A DNA stretch of 6,856 nt from a virus. Lineage: Duplodnaviria > Heunggongvirae > Uroviricota > Caudoviricetes. Position 1 is the stretch's first letter; each line of letters opens with the position of its first letter. Position numbers and translations under genes: made by a program. Shown piece after piece: positions 1,399 to 6,856 of the stretch. The notes under the pieces were generated by a model. It was not told where the DNA came from and did no database searches. It saw only the letters and a program-made list of their open reading frames with translations. The stretch lies in the IMG/VR virus record IMGVR_UViG_2778261568_000010, positions 1 through 6,856 of that record; one strand, 5' to 3'.

Positions 1399-1421
1399 AT
1401 TAGCAAAATAAGGATTCCATT

Positions 1422-1718
1422 ATGCCAGCGCCTTTGTATGGTGCGGATGACCCGCGCCGCTGTTCCGGCAATTCCGTATCGGAGGTGCTGGATAAATTCA
1501 GAAAAAACTACGACCTGATAATGTCGCTACCGCAGGAAACGAAAGAGGAAAAGGAATTTCGTCATTGTATATGGCTTGCAGAGAAAGAAGAACGCGAGCG
1601 AATTTACCAGACATCAATCCGACCATTCCGCAAAGCCACATATACCCACTTCCCTGAATATATCGACCCGCGCCTGCGTAATTACCGCTCACGCTATGGC
1701 GCTATCAGTAATGACTGA
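1422..1718 (+). CDS. Hypothetical protein (98 aa), first gene after the erf/ssb module
   Basis: ATG at 1422 preceded by AAGGA at 1410-1414 (spacing 7). Charged composition (ETKEEKEFRHCIWLAEKEERERIYQ). No family recognised. Confidence 0.5.
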   Translation: MPAPLYGADDPRRCSGNSVSEVLDKFRKNYDLIMSLPQETKEEKEFRHCIWLAEKEERERIYQTSIRPFRKATYTHFPEYIDPRLRNYRSRYGAISND

Positions 1719-1728
1719 GGAATTTACC

Positions 1729-2019
1729 ATGAAAACAATGAAGCTAAACATCGTCCTCGGAAAATACGTTATTACCGGAACCAAACACGACCTGATTCTT
1801 AGTGAAAGAGGAATTATCAAAGAAGGCGAGAATGCAGGGAAAGAAACACTAAGCCGTATCGGTTATTACAGCAAGTTTGAGCATCTGGTTAAAGAATTAT
1901 GCAACCGTGAAATCCTGTTATCTCAGGCGCAGACGCTACAGGATATTCAGCAACATATCGAGAATTTAGGTGTGTCACTTAGCATGGCTATTGACCAGTT
2001 CGTGGAGAGTAAATCATGA
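1729..2019 (+). CDS. Hypothetical protein (96 aa)
   Basis: ATG at 1729 with GAGG at 1717-1720 (spacing 8); begins [18 protein letters not shown]. The track ORF 1576..2019 is the same frame with an N-terminal extension that would overlap the preceding gene. Confidence 0.5.
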
Positions 2020-2183
2020 GAGGACTTGCATACAATCCCGGCATTCTTCCAGCAGAAATGATTATTCGCCAACGCGTAAAGCCAATGCCATCGAGAGAGG
2101 AATTGCTTAAGAGAAATTCTTTTCCTTCAGTGAATCAAAACAAATATCTGAATGCGATGTGGCGCAAAGGAGGCAAGCAGTGA
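2016..2183 (+). CDS. Hypothetical small protein (55 aa), not in the ORF track
   Basis: ATG 2016-2018 overlaps the upstream stop TGA 2017-2019 (ATGA). Hand-translated: [55 protein letters not shown], stop TGA 2181-2183. Fills an otherwise gene-free gap in a densely packed operon. Confidence 0.35.
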
Positions 2184-2479
2184 GTGTATATCTTATTGAT
2201 AAACGTCGACGTGGGCAACAAATACCACCTGTAGGAATTCCGAATCACACATGGTTTTGCGTACTTGATATCGATGGTATGGATGCGTTGGTTGACACTA
2301 GTCATTACTGCGATACCGCAACAGCTACTACGGCGAAAGCAAAGAAAATGGCTGCTCTGATAGAAAACTGGACTCCACCTGATGGTTGGTGCAATGGGAA
2401 TGATCGAGATTGGCATGAAAAAATGAAGGGCTATATCTGCGATTTCTTACGTAAATGCAACGGCTTCAGGGTGATGTGA
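2180..2479 (+). CDS. Hypothetical protein (99 aa from GTG 2180; 106 aa if GTG 2159)
   Basis: GTG 2180 overlaps the upstream stop (GTGA) and follows AAAGGAGG at 2166-2173 (spacing 6). Several Cys residues ([24 protein letters not shown]). No family recognised. Confidence 0.45.
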
Positions 2480-2480
2480 C

Positions 2481-3017
2481 ATGAGCAAGATTGACTATCA
2501 GGCACTGCGTGAAAAGGCAGAGAAAGCAACGTGTGGGGTGTGTTCGCTCGAATATGGAGAGAGCCGATTTGATTGTGATGATGCGCTAATTCATCGTGAC
2601 GTTGTTGGATATCTTCCCATTTGCAGAATTGAAGGAGCGCATCCTGAAAGCGGTTTCGATGAAGATTTCCAAATTGAACAGCAGGCCAATGCTGAATTCA
2701 TCGCCGCAGCCAATCCGGCTACCGTGCTGGCACTACTGGATGAACGGGAAAGAAACCAGCAATACATCAAACGCCGCGACCAGGAGAACGAGGATATTGC
2801 GCTAACGGTAGGGAAGCTGCGTGTTGAGCTGGAAGCAGCAAAAAAGCGCATAGCAGAACTGAAAGCACGGGAGGTTGTACTGCCGCGTGCGCACGATGTT
2901 CACCCATTAGGGCCGCAGTCGGCGAAAATTTTTTGTGAGTTTCACCGGAGTATCGTGAACAGATGCGCCGATGAGATTCGCAAGGTTGGCGTCAAAGTCA
3001 GCATCAAGGGGAATTAG
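2481..3017 (+). CDS. Ead/Ea22-like phage protein (178 aa)
   Basis: Central segment ANAEFIAAANPATVLALLDERE is the signature I associate with the Ead/Ea22-like family of lambdoid early-left accessory proteins. It is followed by a predicted coiled-coil region (LTVGKLRVELEAAKKRIAELKARE). The N-terminus carries Cys at CGVC and FDCDD. Confidence 0.6.
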   Translation: MSKIDYQALREKAEKATCGVCSLEYGESRFDCDDALIHRDVVGYLPICRIEGAHPESGFDEDFQIEQQANAEFIAAANPATVLALLDERERNQQYIKRRDQENEDIALTVGKLRVELEAAKKRIAELKAREVVLPRAHDVHPLGPQSAKIFCEFHRSIVNRCADEIRKVGVKVSIKGN

Positions 3018-3021
3018 GGAT

Positions 3022-3528
3022 ATGGCTGAACTAACCAAAGAATGGCTGAAGCAAACTATCGCTGAATACGAAGCCAATCGTGATGAATTACCGTTTGGAC
3101 TGGATACCAACAGTGCCATTGGGCTTCAGGCGTTCAAGTTGGCGCTGGCATCGCTGGAAGCAGAACCGGTGGCGTGGAAGGTAACATTCACGCAAATTGA
3201 TCGTGAATATAACACGTTCACTGGTATGTATTCTGACAAAGCAGAAGTCGAACGGTGGGTGCGTCTGCATAAAGCATGTAATTTTCGGGCAGATATAACA
3301 CCGCTTTATACCGCCAAGCCAGTGCTGGTAACTCCGGATGGTTGGATAAGCTGTAGTGAGCGAATGCCGGATAAGTTAATTCCGGTAATGGTCATGTATG
3401 AAGACGGTGAGATGTGGTCTGCAATGTGGAATGGCAATCGCTGGGATGATGGCACCGAATATCCGGATCCGCACTCAGTTACGCACTGGCGTGAAATGCC
3501 AGCAGCACCGCAGCAGGAGGTGAAGTGA
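3022..3528 (+). CDS. Phage protein with C-terminal DUF551-type domain (168 aa from ATG 3022; 185 aa if ATG 2971)
   Basis: C-terminal DGWISCSERMPDKLIPVMVMYEDGEMWSAMWNGNRWDDGTEYPDPHSVTHWREMPAAP fits the DUF551 pattern (WIS..E..P...V.V.....W..G..W.....VTHW..MP) common in enterobacterial prophage early regions. The 2971 start would overlap the previous gene by 47 nt; 3022 follows AGGGGA at 3006-3011. Confidence 0.6.
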   Translation: MAELTKEWLKQTIAEYEANRDELPFGLDTNSAIGLQAFKLALASLEAEPVAWKVTFTQIDREYNTFTGMYSDKAEVERWVRLHKACNFRADITPLYTAKPVLVTPDGWISCSERMPDKLIPVMVMYEDGEMWSAMWNGNRWDDGTEYPDPHSVTHWREMPAAPQQEVK

Positions 3529-3806
3529 TGGACTCCTTCGCGAAATATACGATTATTGACTGGATAGCATTCCTTCAGGTTTTGCTCATCTGGTTTTATA
3601 TGGCTTACAGGAGTGGGCAGTGGATTGTCAGTGTAGCCTGTAGCAAGGGATGGCGTTGGTGGAACCGAAAGAATAAAAAAGCACTAGCCTTGGATTCGTT
3701 TTACGAAGCATTCAATCTTAACATCCTTCAGCCTGGTTCTGTCGTTGTAGTCACCACTCAAAGCGGCATGACCATTCAGATTCATAAACCAAAAGAGGAA
3801 AAATGA
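3528..3806 (+). CDS. Small predicted membrane protein (92 aa; 93 aa if GTG 3525)
   Basis: AGGAGG at 3514-3519 precedes the start. The N-terminal hydrophobic stretch YTIIDWIAFLQVLLIWFYMAY is long enough for one transmembrane helix and is followed by a basic patch (WRWWNRKNKK). The start overlaps the upstream stop (TGATG). Confidence 0.45.
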   Translation: MDSFAKYTIIDWIAFLQVLLIWFYMAYRSGQWIVSVACSKGWRWWNRKNKKALALDSFYEAFNLNILQPGSVVVVTTQSGMTIQIHKPKEEK

Positions 3807-3892
3807 TGTGGCCTATATGTGTTAATTGCGGACGGATGTGCCTATCTGGATGGTGCCGAAAGTGCGACAAATGCACGAAGCAAAGACAATAA
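3803..3892 (+). CDS. Candidate Cys-rich micro-protein (29 aa), not in the ORF track
   Basis: ATGATG start overlaps the upstream stop, with AGAGGA at 3793-3798. Hand-translated: MMWPICVNCGRMCLSGWCRKCDKCTKQRQ, six Cys in 29 residues (C-x2-C-x3-C-x4-C-x2-C-x2-C). Confidence 0.25.
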   Translation: MMWPICVNCGRMCLSGWCRKCDKCTKQRQ

Positions 3893-3926
3893 CAATCCTC
3901 GCACTCGCGGGGATTTCTTTTATCTG

Positions 3927-3950
3927 AACTCGCTACGGCGAGTTTTGTTT
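3927..3950 (+). terminator. Candidate intrinsic terminator hairpin (stem AACTCGC / GCGAGTT, loop TACG, then TTGTTTT)
   Basis: Read directly from sequence at 3927-3950; it lies in the only sizeable intergenic gap of the operon (3893..3964). Confidence 0.4.
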
Positions 3951-3964
3951 TATGGAGATGATAA

Positions 3965-4132
3965 ATGCACTTCCGAGTCACAGGTGAATGGAATGGAGAA
4001 CCATTCAACAGAGTTATCGAAGCCGAGGACATCAACGACTGCTATAACCACTGGATGATATGGGCGCAGATAGCACATGCAGAAGTAACCAATATTCGAA
4101 TTGAAGAACTGAAAGAACACAAAACCGCCTGA
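3965..4132 (+). CDS. Hypothetical 55-aa protein immediately upstream of xis
   Basis: ATG 3965 with GGAG at 3954-3957 (spacing 7). Hand-translated: MHFRVTGEWNGEPFNRVIEAEDINDCYNHWMIWAQIAHAEVTNIRIEELKEHKTA. Its size and distance from xis match the unnamed 55-codon ORF that I recall upstream of xis in the lambda reference annotation (coordinates from memory). The stop TGA 4130-4132 lies in the loop of the next hairpin. Confidence 0.45.
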   Translation: MHFRVTGEWNGEPFNRVIEAEDINDCYNHWMIWAQIAHAEVTNIRIEELKEHKTA

Positions 4133-4145
4133 TGGCGGTTTTTTC
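4121..4145 (+). terminator. Intrinsic terminator-like hairpin (stem AAAACCGCC / GGCGGTTTT, loop TGAT, then T-run)
   Basis: Near-perfect 9-bp stem with a GC core followed by TTTTTT, read directly at 4121-4145. Confidence 0.55.
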
Positions 4146-4159
4146 TTGCGTGTAATTGC
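4146..4159 (+). promoter_or_regulatory. cII-binding TTGC-N6-TTGC element of the int promoter pI
   Basis: TTGC at 4146-4149, a 6-nt spacer, then TTGC at 4156-4159, 13 nt before the xis ATG. In lambda, cII activates pI at exactly such a repeat in the -35 region, and the transcript starts inside xis so that Int is made without Xis. Confidence 0.6.
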
Positions 4160-4171
4160 GGAGACTTTGCG

Positions 4172-4390
4172 ATGTACTTGACACTTCAGGAGTGGAACGC
4201 ACGCCAGCGACGCCCAAGAAGCCTTGAAACAGTTCGTCGATGGGTACGCGAGTGCAGGATATTCCCTCCTCCGGTTAAGGATGGAAGAGAGTATCTGTTC
4301 CACGAATCAGCGGTAAAAATTGACTTAAATCGACCAGTAACAGGTAGCCTTTTGAAGAGGATCAGAAATGGGAAGAAGGCGAAGTCATGA
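4172..4390 (+). CDS. xis: Excisionase Xis (lambda type)
   Basis: 72-aa translation MYLTLQEWNARQRRPRSLETVRRWVRECRIFPPPVKDGREYLFHESAVKIDLNRPVTGSLLKRIRNGKKAKS matches lambda Xis as I recall it over its full length; the 3' end overlaps int by 23 nt as in lambda. Confidence 0.93.
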   Translation: MYLTLQEWNARQRRPRSLETVRRWVRECRIFPPPVKDGREYLFHESAVKIDLNRPVTGSLLKRIRNGKKAKS

Positions 4391-5438
4391 GCGCCGGGAT
4401 TTACCCCCTAACCTTTATATAAGAAACAATGGATATTACTGCTACAGGGACCCAAGGACGGGTAAAGAGTTTGGATTAGGCCGAGACAGGCGAATCGCAA
4501 TCACTGAAGCTATACAGGCCAACATTGAGTTATTTTCAGGACACAAACACAAGCCTCTGACAGCGAGAATCAACAGTGATAATTCCGTTACGTTACATTC
4601 ATGGCTTGATCGCTACGAAAAAATCCTGGCCAGCAGAGGAATCAAGCAGAAGACACTCATAAATTACATGAGCAAAATTAAAGCAATAAGGAGGGGGCTG
4701 CCTGATGCTTCACTTGAAGACATCACCACAAAAGAAATTGCGGCAATGCTCAATGGATACATAGACGAGGGCAAGGCGGCATCAGCCAAGTTAATCAGAT
4801 CAACACTGAGCGATGCATTCCGAGAGGCTATAGCTGAAGGCCATATAACAACAAACCCGGTCGCAGCCACTCGCGCAGCAAAATCAGAGGTAAGGAGATC
4901 AAGACTTACGGCTGACGAATACCTGAAAATTTATCAAGCAGCAGAATCATCACCATGTTGGCTTAGACTTGCAATGGAACTGGCTGTTGTTACCGGGCAG
5001 CGAGTTGGTGATTTATGCGAAATGAAGTGGTCTGATATCGTAGATGGATATCTTTATGTCGAGCAAAGCAAAACAGGCGTAAAAATTGCCATCCCAACAA
5101 CATTGCATGTTGATGCTCTCGGGATATCAATGAAGGAAACACTTGATAAATGCAAAGAGATTCTTGGCGGAGAAACCATAATTGCATCTACTCGTCGTGA
5201 ACCGCTTTCATCCGGCACAGTATCAAGGTATTTTATGCGCGCACGAAAAGCATCAGGTCTTTCCTTCGAAGGGGATCCGCCTACCTTTCACGAGTTGCGC
5301 AGTTTGTCTGCAAGACTCTATGAGAAGCAGATAAGCGATAAGTTTGCTCAACATCTTCTCGGGCATAAGTCGGACACCATGGCATCACAGTATCGTGATG
5401 ACAGAGGCAGGGAGTGGGACAAAATTGAAATCAAATAA
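4368..5438 (+). CDS. int: Tyrosine site-specific integrase Int (lambda type, 356 aa)
   Basis: N-terminal arm-binding domain MGRRRSHERRDLPPNLYIRNNGYYCYRDPRTGKEF and a C-terminal catalytic domain with the R...K...HxxR...H...Y signature (TGQRVGDL, SKTGVKIAIP, HELRSLSARLY, LLGHKSDTMASQY) match lambda Int essentially residue for residue from memory. A few substitutions relative to the reference are possible but I cannot verify them. Confidence 0.97.
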   Translation: MGRRRSHERRDLPPNLYIRNNGYYCYRDPRTGKEFGLGRDRRIAITEAIQANIELFSGHKHKPLTARINSDNSVTLHSWLDRYEKILASRGIKQKTLINYMSKIKAIRRGLPDASLEDITTKEIAAMLNGYIDEGKAASAKLIRSTLSDAFREAIAEGHITTNPVAATRAAKSEVRRSRLTADEYLKIYQAAESSPCWLRLAMELAVVTGQRVGDLCEMKWSDIVDGYLYVEQSKTGVKIAIPTTLHVDALGISMKETLDKCKEILGGETIIASTRREPLSSGTVSRYFMRARKASGLSFEGDPPTFHELRSLSARLYEKQISDKFAQHLLGHKSDTMASQYRDDRGREWDKIEIK

Positions 5439-5511
5439 TGATTTTATTTTGACTGATAGTGACCTGTTCGTTGCAACAAATTGATAAGCAATGCTTTTTT
5501 ATAATGCCAAC
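5439..5511 (+). other. attL P' arm (phage side): arm-type Int sites and IHF H' site
   Basis: The reverse complement of 5439..5511 reads GTTGGCATTATAAAAAAGCATTGCTTATCAATTTGTTGCAACGAACAGGTCACTATCAGTCAAAATAAAATCA, i.e. the lambda attP P' arm as recalled. AGGTCACTAT-type arm sites lie at about 5441-5468 and an IHF-like TATCAATTTGTTG at about 5474-5486 (reverse strand). Confidence 0.85.
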
Positions 5512-5526
5512 TTAGTATAAAAAAGC
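5512..5526. repeat. att core (15-bp common core O) at the prophage/host junction
   Basis: TTAGTATAAAAAAGC is the exact reverse complement of the lambda/E. coli core GCTTTTTTATACTAA. The flanking host-side sequence (reverse complement CCGTTGAAGCCTGC) matches the E. coli attB B arm as recalled. Confidence 0.9.
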
Positions 5527-5572
5527 AGGCTTCAACGGATTCATTTTTCTATTTCATAGCCCGGAGCAACCT

Positions 5573-6856
5573 GTGAACACATTTTCAGTTTCCCGTCTGG
5601 CGCTGGCATTGGCTTTTGGCGTGACGCTGACCGCCTGTAGCTCAACACCGCCCGATCAACGTCCTTCTGATCAAACCGCGCCTGGTACCTCTTCTCGCCC
5701 GATTCTGTCGGCAAAAGAAGCGCAGAATTTCGATGCTCAACACTATTTTGCATCCCTGACACCAGGTGCGGCAGCGTGGAATCCTTCCCCGATTACCCTG
5801 CCTGCGCAACCTGACTTTGTTGTCGGCCCGGCGGGTACTCAAGGTGTAACGCATACCACGATTCAGGCGGCGGTAGATGCGGCAATTATCAAGCGCACCA
5901 ACAAGCGCCAGTATATTGCCGTGATGCCTGGTGAGTATCAGGGAACGGTGTATGTCCCTGCCGCTCCGGGTGGAATTACTCTGTACGGTACAGGTGAAAA
6001 ACCGATTGATGTGAAGATTGGGCTTTCCCTTGATGGGGGCATGAGCCCTGCCGACTGGCGTCACGACGTCAACCCGCGCGGCAAATATATGCCAGGTAAA
6101 CCAGCGTGGTATATGTACGATAGCTGCCAGAGCAAACGCAGCGACAGTATCGGTGTTCTCTGCTCTGCGGTCTTCTGGTCACAAAACAATGGCCTGCAAC
6201 TGCAAAATCTGACCATCGAAAACACGCTGGGCGATAGCGTAGATGCGGGTAACCATCCGGCGGTGGCACTGCGTACTGATGGTGACAAAGTGCAGATCAA
6301 TAACGTCAACATTCTCGGTCGTCAGAATACCTTCTTTGTCACCAACAGTGGTGTGCAAAACCGTCTGGAAACCAACCGTCAGCCGCGTACTCTGGTGACC
6401 AACAGTTACATTGAAGGGGATGTGGATATCGTTTCTGGTCGCGGCGCAGTGGTGTTCGATAACACCGAATTCCGCGTGGTGAACTCACGTACTCAGCAAG
6501 AAGCGTATGTGTTTGCACCGGCTACGCTGTCTAACATCTATTACGGTTTCCTCGCCGTAAACAGCCGTTTCAATGCTTCCGGTGATGGCGTGGCGCAACT
6601 GGGTCGCTCGCTGGATGTTGATGCCAATACCAACGGTCAGGTGGTGATCCGTGATAGCGCCATCAACGAAGGTTTTAACACAGCCAAACCCTGGGCTGAT
6701 GCGGTGATCTCTAATCGTCCGTTTGCGGGTAACACCGGCAGCGTTGATGATAACGACGAAATACAACGCAATCTGAATGACACTAACTACAACCGCATGT
6801 GGGAATACAATAACCGCGGCGTGGGTAGCAAAGTGGTTGCAGAGGCGAAGAAGTAA
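5573..6856 (+). CDS. ybhC: Host outer-membrane lipoprotein YbhC (pectinesterase-like, carbohydrate esterase family 8 fold; reported thioesterase activity), 427 aa
   Basis: GTG start with GGAG at 5563-5566. The N-terminus MNTFSVSRLALALAFGVTLTAC is a lipoprotein signal peptide with lipobox LTAC. The full-length translation matches E. coli YbhC as I recall it. Codon usage and GC content look host-like, unlike the AT-richer phage DNA to the left. Confidence 0.93.
   Translation: MNTFSVSRLALALAFGVTLTACSSTPPDQRPSDQTAPGTSSRPILSAKEAQNFDAQHYFASLTPGAAAWNPSPITLPAQPDFVVGPAGTQGVTHTTIQAAVDAAIIKRTNKRQYIAVMPGEYQGTVYVPAAPGGITLYGTGEKPIDVKIGLSLDGGMSPADWRHDVNPRGKYMPGKPAWYMYDSCQSKRSDSIGVLCSAVFWSQNNGLQLQNLTIENTLGDSVDAGNHPAVALRTDGDKVQINNVNILGRQNTFFVTNSGVQNRLETNRQPRTLVTNSYIEGDVDIVSGRGAVVFDNTEFRVVNSRTQQEAYVFAPATLSNIYYGFLAVNSRFNASGDGVAQLGRSLDVDANTNGQVVIRDSAINEGFNTAKPWADAVISNRPFAGNTGSVDDNDEIQRNLNDTNYNRMWEYNNRGVGSKVVAEAKK

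Follow-up and report, generated by a model that had tools for sequence, protein, structure and literature searches.

An Ead/Ea22-like and DUF551 gene pair in a lambdoid prophage reads as a split form of the modular Ea22 gene

Introduction

Genes of the Ea22 family are among the earliest, and in Shiga-toxin (Stx) phages the most highly expressed, early genes, and the family biases the choice between lysis and lysogeny, on which the release of toxin depends in Stx phages. Lambda and Phi24B phages deleted for ea22 have a shorter latent period and a larger burst, leave fewer host survivors and lysogenise less often (PMC7093339). In Phi24B, where the effect was especially marked, the latent period fell from 135 to 85 min and the burst rose from 25 to 110; lysogenisation was lowered at every multiplicity of infection (m.o.i.) tested for lambda and at m.o.i. 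5 and 10 for Phi24B (PMC7093339). Here we analyze two adjacent genes, an Ead/Ea22-like gene (gene 1) and a gene ending in a DUF551 domain (gene 2), that occupy positions 2481 to 3528 of a 6,856-nucleotide (nt) stretch of DNA from a member of the Caudoviricetes (IMG/VR record IMGVR_UViG_2778261568_000010), hereafter the window.

Published work describes lambda Ea22 as tetrameric: a coiled coil lies at its center, and its C-terminal domain, of solved structure, is dimeric (PMC10834534, PDB 8DSX). The C-terminal parts of Ea22 proteins are mosaic and acidic (PMC10834534). The mosaic build of the family, its DUF551-bearing variant and the existence of fused and split forms are already known (PMC10834534, PMC8614690), and the split form of ea22 in 933W has been noted (PMC8614690). 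A previous sequence-only reading of the window had presented genes 1 and 2 as neighboring accessory genes from families with no established function. For Ea22 this statement is outdated, given the deletion phenotypes of lambda and Phi24B, and the two genes are more than neighbors, since together they tile the single-chain Ea22 of Phi24B. The locus is an ordinary example of an element that was already known; both proteins are present in public databases with identical sequences and under the same family names. Our additions are modest: the tiling, the breakpoints of an exchangeable cassette, statistics on the linkage of the two modules, the C-terminal placement of DUF551, and the removal of a proposed cysteine cluster from the description of the family.

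Results and discussion

A two-gene counterpart of Phi24B Ea22

Gene 1 (2481..3017, + strand) encodes a 178-residue homolog of P22 eaD and lambda ea22. Its open reading frame (ORF) agrees with the gene call on the source contig, and residues 2-129 match the Pfam family Ead_Ea22 (PF13935/IPR025153; E=1.3e-30, 107.2 bits against a cut-off of 27), so the domain search bears out the family assignment made from the letters. Gene 2 (3022..3528, + strand; 168 residues) is supported by a database protein, a gene call and Pfam. As had also been proposed, it ends in DUF551, matching the profile over all of its 68 positions (PF04448/IPR007539; E=8.4e-18; cut-off 22 bits, score 65.4 bits).

The Ea22 protein of Phi24B (vb_24B_6c, 301 residues), of the 'Ea22_V2' type, carries both families in one chain, with Ead_Ea22 at residues 2-155 and DUF551 at residues 231-296. 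Gene 1 aligns to residues 1-123 of this protein (E=3e-35, 54% identity) and gene 2 is collinear with residues 120-297 (E=1e-12, 30% identity); the pair therefore tiles the whole of Phi24B Ea22. On the phrog_60 profile, gene 1 takes positions 1-137 and gene 2 positions 114-283. The order of parts is the same (Ead domain, stalk, middle piece, C-terminal DUF551), as is the early-left location between the recombination genes and xis. In contrast to the single polypeptide of Phi24B, the window pair is divided by a stop, 4 nt and a new start. Relative to Phi24B Ea22, gene 1 has gained a 48-residue tail ending in KGN, and the sequences of the N-domain and of the DUF551 core differ between the two. 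Judged from these alignments, the gene pair is a two-cistron (split) form of the modular Ea22 gene of lambdoid phages.

The pair does not encode a single chain: gene 1 stops at TAG 3015-3017, gene 2 starts in a different frame at ATG 3022, and gene prediction on the source contig, made independently, yields separate proteins of 178 and 168 residues. The mechanically delimited ORF of gene 2 begins further upstream, at ATG 2971, which would make it overlap gene 1. This start is ruled out because homology begins at Met 18 of that ORF (PHROG alignments start at residues 16-18) and because a database protein of 168 residues, P0121, is 100% identical to gene 2 as read from ATG 3022. A programmed frameshift that fuses the two genes is likewise ruled out, as real fusions have a different 51-nt linker in place of an overlap.

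Split and fused alleles

Natural fusions of the two modules (P0095, P0100, P0102, P0106 and P0114-P0116) are 95-96% identical to gene 1 over residues 1-132 and then continue into DUF551. One of them, P0114, has the identical DUF551 allele of the window. When the DNA of the pair is aligned with that of P0114, identity is ~96% over positions 1-386 of the pair and 201/202 over positions 847-1048, with nothing alignable between. Here the window has an exchangeable cassette of 460 nt (2867..3326, + strand), made up of the gene 1 tail, the stop, ATG 3022 and the N-terminal part of gene 2, whereas P0114 has the 51-nt linker. The purine-rich AAGGGG at 3006-3011 lies inside the cassette, before the gene 1 stop. 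The fused loci have no separate DUF551 gene downstream, and the 4-nt stop-start junction is seen again in several loci. Fused and split forms with near-identical flanks that differ by the 460-nt cassette are a natural allelic series, which could be used to ask whether the stalk and the DUF551 head need physical linkage.

In L007 (2501-3139) and L008 (2501-3292) the fused Ead-DUF551 genes are located between lambda P-like/DnaT-like replication genes and a small terminase gene, a region and a phage type different from the early-left operon.

Architecture of the gene 1 protein

Alignment, per-position counts and charge delimit an acidic N-terminal domain in gene 1 (residues 1-85, 2481..2735, + strand; isoelectric point (pI) 4.4). 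By itself this domain matches the Pfam family at E=3e-13; its AlphaFold2 (AF2) model is poor, with a predicted local distance difference test (pLDDT) score of 41-64. The FIAAANPATVLALL motif, which had been picked out as a signature of the protein, spans residues 73-86 (2697-2738); across 120 homologs its conservation is 96-98%.

A cluster of N-terminal cysteines had been read as part of the same signature. The cysteines are present, at positions 18, 21, 32 and 48, but they do not form a conserved feature of the family. In the same 120 homologs, Cys is found 111 times at position 18, 30 times at position 32 and 120 times at position 48, and position 21 is Trp in all 120. Codon 21 of gene 1 (2541-2543) is TGT, a private change to Cys, where 120/120 homologs and the fused allele have TGG. 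The segment that bears the cysteines is missing from lambda Ea22 and P22 EaD. A Cys4 zinc-binding module in gene 1 is ruled out by the lack of conservation of the four cysteines among the homologs.

The stalk (residues 79-129, 2715..2867, + strand) is a coiled-coil region common to gene 1 and lambda Ea22. The AF2 model has a single long helix over residues 79-129 (pLDDT 86-96), and residues 51-126 are 61% identical to the coiled-coil region of lambda Ea22 (E=5e-27). The heptad register is constant over residues 93-139; however, a simple heptad score does not discriminate, as 7/300 shuffled sequences reached the value of gene 1. The coiled coil that had been proposed for this protein is upheld by the predicted helix, by homology to lambda Ea22 and by published work, not by the heptad score.

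Comparison with lambda Ea22 (182 residues) separates the shared parts from the exchanged ones. Both proteins have an N-terminal helix and a near-identical stalk segment, LLDERERNQQYIKRRDQENEDIALTVGKLRVELE, and the genes have the same genomic position. A beta-rich stretch of ~50 residues in the gene 1 N-domain has no counterpart in lambda Ea22, whose C-terminal domain of 80 residues, dimeric in PDB 8DSX, is unrelated to the gene 1 tail.

The tail of gene 1 (48 residues, 2871..3014, + strand), defined by alignment and by the C-terminal endings of Ead ORFs, has no match to PDB 8DSX and no Pfam family. A C-terminal K/R-G-E tripeptide has been described for Ead/Ea22 proteins (PMC7093339). Among 50 unique viral Ead ORFs, 23 end in KGE and 5 in KGN, making the K-G-N of gene 1 a minority variant.

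Length classes of Ead proteins that have the same N-module and tail (150, 178, 206 and 241 residues) differ by multiples of seven. Such steps fit a coiled-coil spacer; classes of 196 and 235 residues are exceptions, and the series comes from one data set.

Structure prediction, which the sequence-only reading had suggested, thus yielded the stalk helix, but fold comparison of the gene 1 and gene 2 models gave no informative structural match. A PDB sequence search returned no relative of either protein, and the NCBIfam library held no matches for the pair.

Architecture of the gene 2 protein

The N-terminal part of gene 2 is a two-helix module (residues 1-53, ending LEAEPV; 3022..3180, + strand), delimited by AF2, BLASTP and a profile. 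The modeled helices span residues 6-22 and 29-46 (pLDDT 79-90). This part weakly resembles the distal stalk of Phi24B Ea22, to which it is probably homologous: BLASTP gives E=0.035, and a profile comparison gives 17.2 bits against a maximum of 8.7 bits in 2000 shuffles. It belongs to no Pfam family. The module recurs at the N-terminus of many proteins: of 146 representative relatives, 113 match a profile of the N-terminal ~98 residues of gene 2, and 47 of these lack DUF551. In 103 of the 113 the match begins at residue 5 or earlier.

The DUF551 domain (residues 102-168, 3325..3525, + strand; delimited by Pfam and charge) is acidic (pI 4.4), Trp-rich and located at the extreme C-terminus. The columns that are invariant in the family (W108, S112, P116, W156, P160 and P163) and the flanking motifs W..S..ERMP and HW..P..P are all present. 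In 92/99 representatives DUF551 ends within 5 residues of the C-terminus, and it is preceded by N-terminal parts of ~20 to >200 residues. DUF551 is a strictly C-terminal, portable module. PF04448 is the sole Pfam domain of gene 2, unlike in P22 EaA, where a PF04447 dATP/dGTP pyrophosphohydrolase domain precedes DUF551; gene 2 lacks PF04447.

Order and linkage of the two modules

Split pairs with Ead followed by DUF551 on the same strand, as in the window, are found in 933W (ea22 and a DUF551 gene), P22 (eaD...eaA) and HK620 (hkaG/hkaE). In these phages the two are separated by one to three small genes, whereas the window genes are directly adjacent. The annotation of HK620 states that hkaG and hkaE both resemble one 933W protein.

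We measured the linkage in 80 viral contigs with a gene 1-type Ead N-module, of which 74 loci could be evaluated. DUF551 is located downstream of Ead, on the same strand, in 61/74 loci and upstream in none. In 11 of these 61 loci DUF551 is fused to Ead; in 31 it has an ORF of its own at a distance of up to 1.2 kb, and in 19 it is located farther away. The spacing ranges from 166 to 2024 nt. The linkage of Ead and DUF551 is real and conserved in order, and it is not obligatory.

These counts bear on the main alternative to a split Ea22, namely that genes 1 and 2 are functionally independent accessory genes made neighbors by synteny and mosaicism, gene 1 being a complete Ea22 with a minimal C-terminal end of its own and gene 2 having a separate task. 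Gene 1 does end in a variant of the terminal motif of the family, Ea22 occurs in lambda without a DUF551 gene, P22 and 933W have genes between Ead and DUF551, DUF551 is joined to many unrelated N-terminal parts (such as the pyrophosphohydrolase in P22 EaA), and 13 of the 74 loci lack a downstream DUF551. This explanation is possible, and we hold it to be unlikely in view of the natural fusions of exactly these modules, the lack of a separate DUF551 gene in the fused loci, the recurrence of the 4-nt stop-start junction and an Ead-then-DUF551 order that is never reversed despite the wide range of spacings.

Mosaicism and selection

Both families are widespread, as had been stated: megablast finds matches to parts of the pair in 3119/5426 complete E. 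coli genomes and in 516 phage records. At a coverage of at least 80% of the 1048-nt pair, no phage record and no genome among the 5426 matched. The exact pair occurs in 4 contigs only, all representing one locus of the E. coli assembly GCA_002466895.1.

Module identities disagree from one locus to the next. The N-terminal part of gene 2 is 98% identical in L001 and 80% identical in L002, while the DUF551 domains are 43% and 99% identical, respectively. L007 and L008 have an Ead N-domain of 98-99% identity next to an unrelated tail. The DUF551 domain is mosaic as well. Comparison of alleles places a right-hand recombination boundary at the start of DUF551 (codons 102-117, LVTPDGWISCSERMPD; 3325..3372, + strand). 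In this junction 5/6 alleles compared have 91-96% nucleotide identity, and 85-100% of the residues they share are encoded by identical codons; the values for L008 are lower, 71% and 67%, respectively. The cores of the compared DUF551 alleles, P22 eaA among them, are ~35% identical at the nucleotide level. Conservation at synonymous sites argues that the segment is a recombination junction and does not reflect protein-level selection alone.

Wherever modules are truly homologous, the ratio of nonsynonymous to synonymous substitution rates (dN/dS) lies under 1: it is 0.04-0.46 in the Ead N-domain, 0.11-0.67 in the stalk and 0.19-0.37 in the N-terminal part of gene 2. This indicates moderate purifying selection; no sign of positive selection was seen where dN/dS was measurable. 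These values support the selected role that had been suggested on the basis of conservation. The conservation itself is a less direct argument than it had seemed, as the allele comparisons attribute part of it to recent recombination of modules rather than long-term constraint.

In L002, a prophage at the lambda attachment (att) site of E. coli strain D1, the Ead gene (3001-3570) is annotated as a truncated pseudogene and the downstream DUF551 gene is intact, indicating that the Ead part can be lost without loss of the DUF551 part.

Could the pair be decaying or functionless mosaic filler, the remains of a broken fusion gene? The rarity of the exact combination, the truncated Ead pseudogene of strain D1 and the private Trp21-to-Cys change of gene 1 would fit such a history. 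Yet neither frame is disrupted, each has a proper start and stop, and the two are tightly coupled; with dN/dS values under 1 and each module present in thousands of genomes, decay is highly improbable.

A putative role in the lysis-lysogeny decision

Because the Phi24B protein contains both modules, the pair may be expected to do the job of Phi24B Ea22, and by homology we ascribe to it a putative pro-lysogenic role. The close spacing of the genes would couple their translation in the early-left operon, and both products would be made very early after infection or induction. Gene 1 supplies the N-terminal domain and the long coiled-coil stalk, closed by the short tail; gene 2 supplies the parts that follow the stalk in single-chain relatives, which are the stalk-end-like helices, the middle piece and the DUF551 head. 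By analogy with the lambda Ea22 tetramer, the gene 1 product may oligomerize through its stalk, and the gene 2 product may either dock on this stalk or act alone. The acidic head domains (the gene 1 N-domain and DUF551) would most likely bind a host or phage partner, and this binding would hold back lytic growth and make lysogeny more likely. On balance we consider it probable, with moderate confidence, that the pair is a split modular Ea22 allele in which the gene 1 stalk oligomerizes and which slows lysis and favors lysogeny.

Several observations weigh against this model. Function is transferred from proteins that are 54% (Phi24B) or 61% (lambda, stalk only) identical and that differ from the pair in their N-terminal and C-terminal parts, and the tetramer and the pro-lysogenic phenotype are reported only for the lambda, P27 and Phi24B proteins (PMC10834534, PMC7093339). 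The C-terminal domain of lambda Ea22 alone does not give the phenotype (PMC10834534), and two-hybrid screens found no Ea22 partner (PMC7093339). Lambda Ea22 works without DUF551, and the two parts can act apart, as judged from the 13 loci without a downstream DUF551 and from the presence of an Ead module in only 6/99 DUF551 representatives. The similarity between the N-terminal part of gene 2 and the Phi24B stalk is weak by itself, and the structure models of the two proteins are of low to moderate overall confidence (pLDDT 64 and 68).

A bolder version of the split-Ea22 model, which we regard as speculative and doubtful, has the Ead stalk as a general display scaffold with swappable effector heads, the DUF551 head disarming a host immunity or stress pathway and the N-terminal helices of gene 2 plugging non-covalently into the gene 1 oligomer. 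Heads would then be exchanged by recombination at conserved junctions, and the scaffold would not have to be rebuilt.

Exchangeable heads also feature in an explanation of the pair as a counter-defense device, in which the stalk shows the heads and DUF551 or the N-domain neutralizes a defense that senses phage recombination or replication. Shortly upstream of the pair come erf, an SSB-like gene and abc2 (anti-RecBCD); relatives have a Lar-type restriction-alleviation gene nearby, and rapid head swapping with divergent DUF551 cores between conserved flanks would fit an arms race. In addition, a 2026 preprint relates the anti-OLD protein Oad2 to P22 EaE, describes it as sometimes fused to EaD/Ea22 and regards the region as an anti-immunity hotspot. 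We nevertheless find this explanation improbable. In comparisons with P22 EaE, the E values (0.44 for gene 1, 0.23 for gene 2 and 3.4 for the upstream DUF7739 gene) show no relationship of the pair or the DUF7739 gene to EaE-like anti-OLD proteins. A literature search found no link between Ea22-like proteins and anti-defense, the measurable dN/dS values are below 1 and give no hint of positive selection, and PADLOC (E<=0.01), whose library holds defense and not counter-defense proteins, matched neither the pair nor three of its neighbors.

YfdS of the cryptic prophage CPS-53 is, going by its description, a small DUF551 prophage protein like gene 2; unlike gene 2, it resides in a yfdQRST cluster and has no Ead partner. 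When overexpressed with YfdQ and YfdR, YfdS contributes to inhibiting DnaA-dependent initiation (PMC4776307), and yfdS mutants are sensitive to H2O2 (PMC4776307, PMC10834534). By analogy with YfdS, the DUF551 protein would target DNA replication or stress physiology of the host, with any influence on lysogeny following secondarily from a slowed host cell cycle. However, YfdR alone bound DnaA and YfdT could replace YfdS (PMC4776307), the evidence from YfdS is indirect, and structure searches gave no match; we thus judge this explanation quite unlikely.

Genomic setting

The window covers the left arm of a lambdoid prophage, and its + strand is the direction of early-left transcription. Along this strand the genes are kil, erf, an SSB-like gene, abc2 (anti-RecBCD), DUF5405, DUF2737, DUF7739, gene 1, gene 2, DUF4752, a lambda-orf55-like gene, xis and int. 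Gene 1 thereby occupies the early-left (exo-xis equivalent) position that had been assigned to the pair, between erf/abc2 and xis/int and on the same strand as xis and int, with the att core after int.

An exact match to the lambda att core, GCTTTTTTATACTAA, is located at 5512-5526 on the - strand, with int (4368-5438) on one side and the host gene ybhC (5573-6856) on the other. The GC content rises from ~0.45 to ~0.55 at the att core, marking the prophage-host junction, and the whole window is ~97% identical to E. coli chromosomes at the att site. The prophage is integrated at the lambda attachment site.

Genes around the pair are tightly packed. A gap of 1 nt separates the DUF7739 stop from the gene 1 start, the gap between genes 1 and 2 is 4 nt, and gene 2 overlaps the DUF4752 gene by 1 nt. 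Searches of the region found no RNA families, repeats or internal promoters. Over 1400-5600 (+ strand) there is one sigma-70-like site (5398-5425), compared with 6.7 expected from shuffles; this scarcity of promoters fits one long antiterminated early transcript from pL.

Other features of the window lie outside the pair. Two tandem terminator-like hairpins at 3894-3915 and 3926-3945 (+ strand) follow the DUF4752 gene and precede the lambda-orf55-like gene (3965-4132), and a third such hairpin (4142-4121, - strand) is found just before xis. The SSB-like gene after erf (1015-1398) encodes a 127-residue protein that matches a PHROG single-strand-binding (SSB) family and no Pfam model. Its C-terminus, DDSIPF, resembles the C-terminal tip of bacterial SSB.

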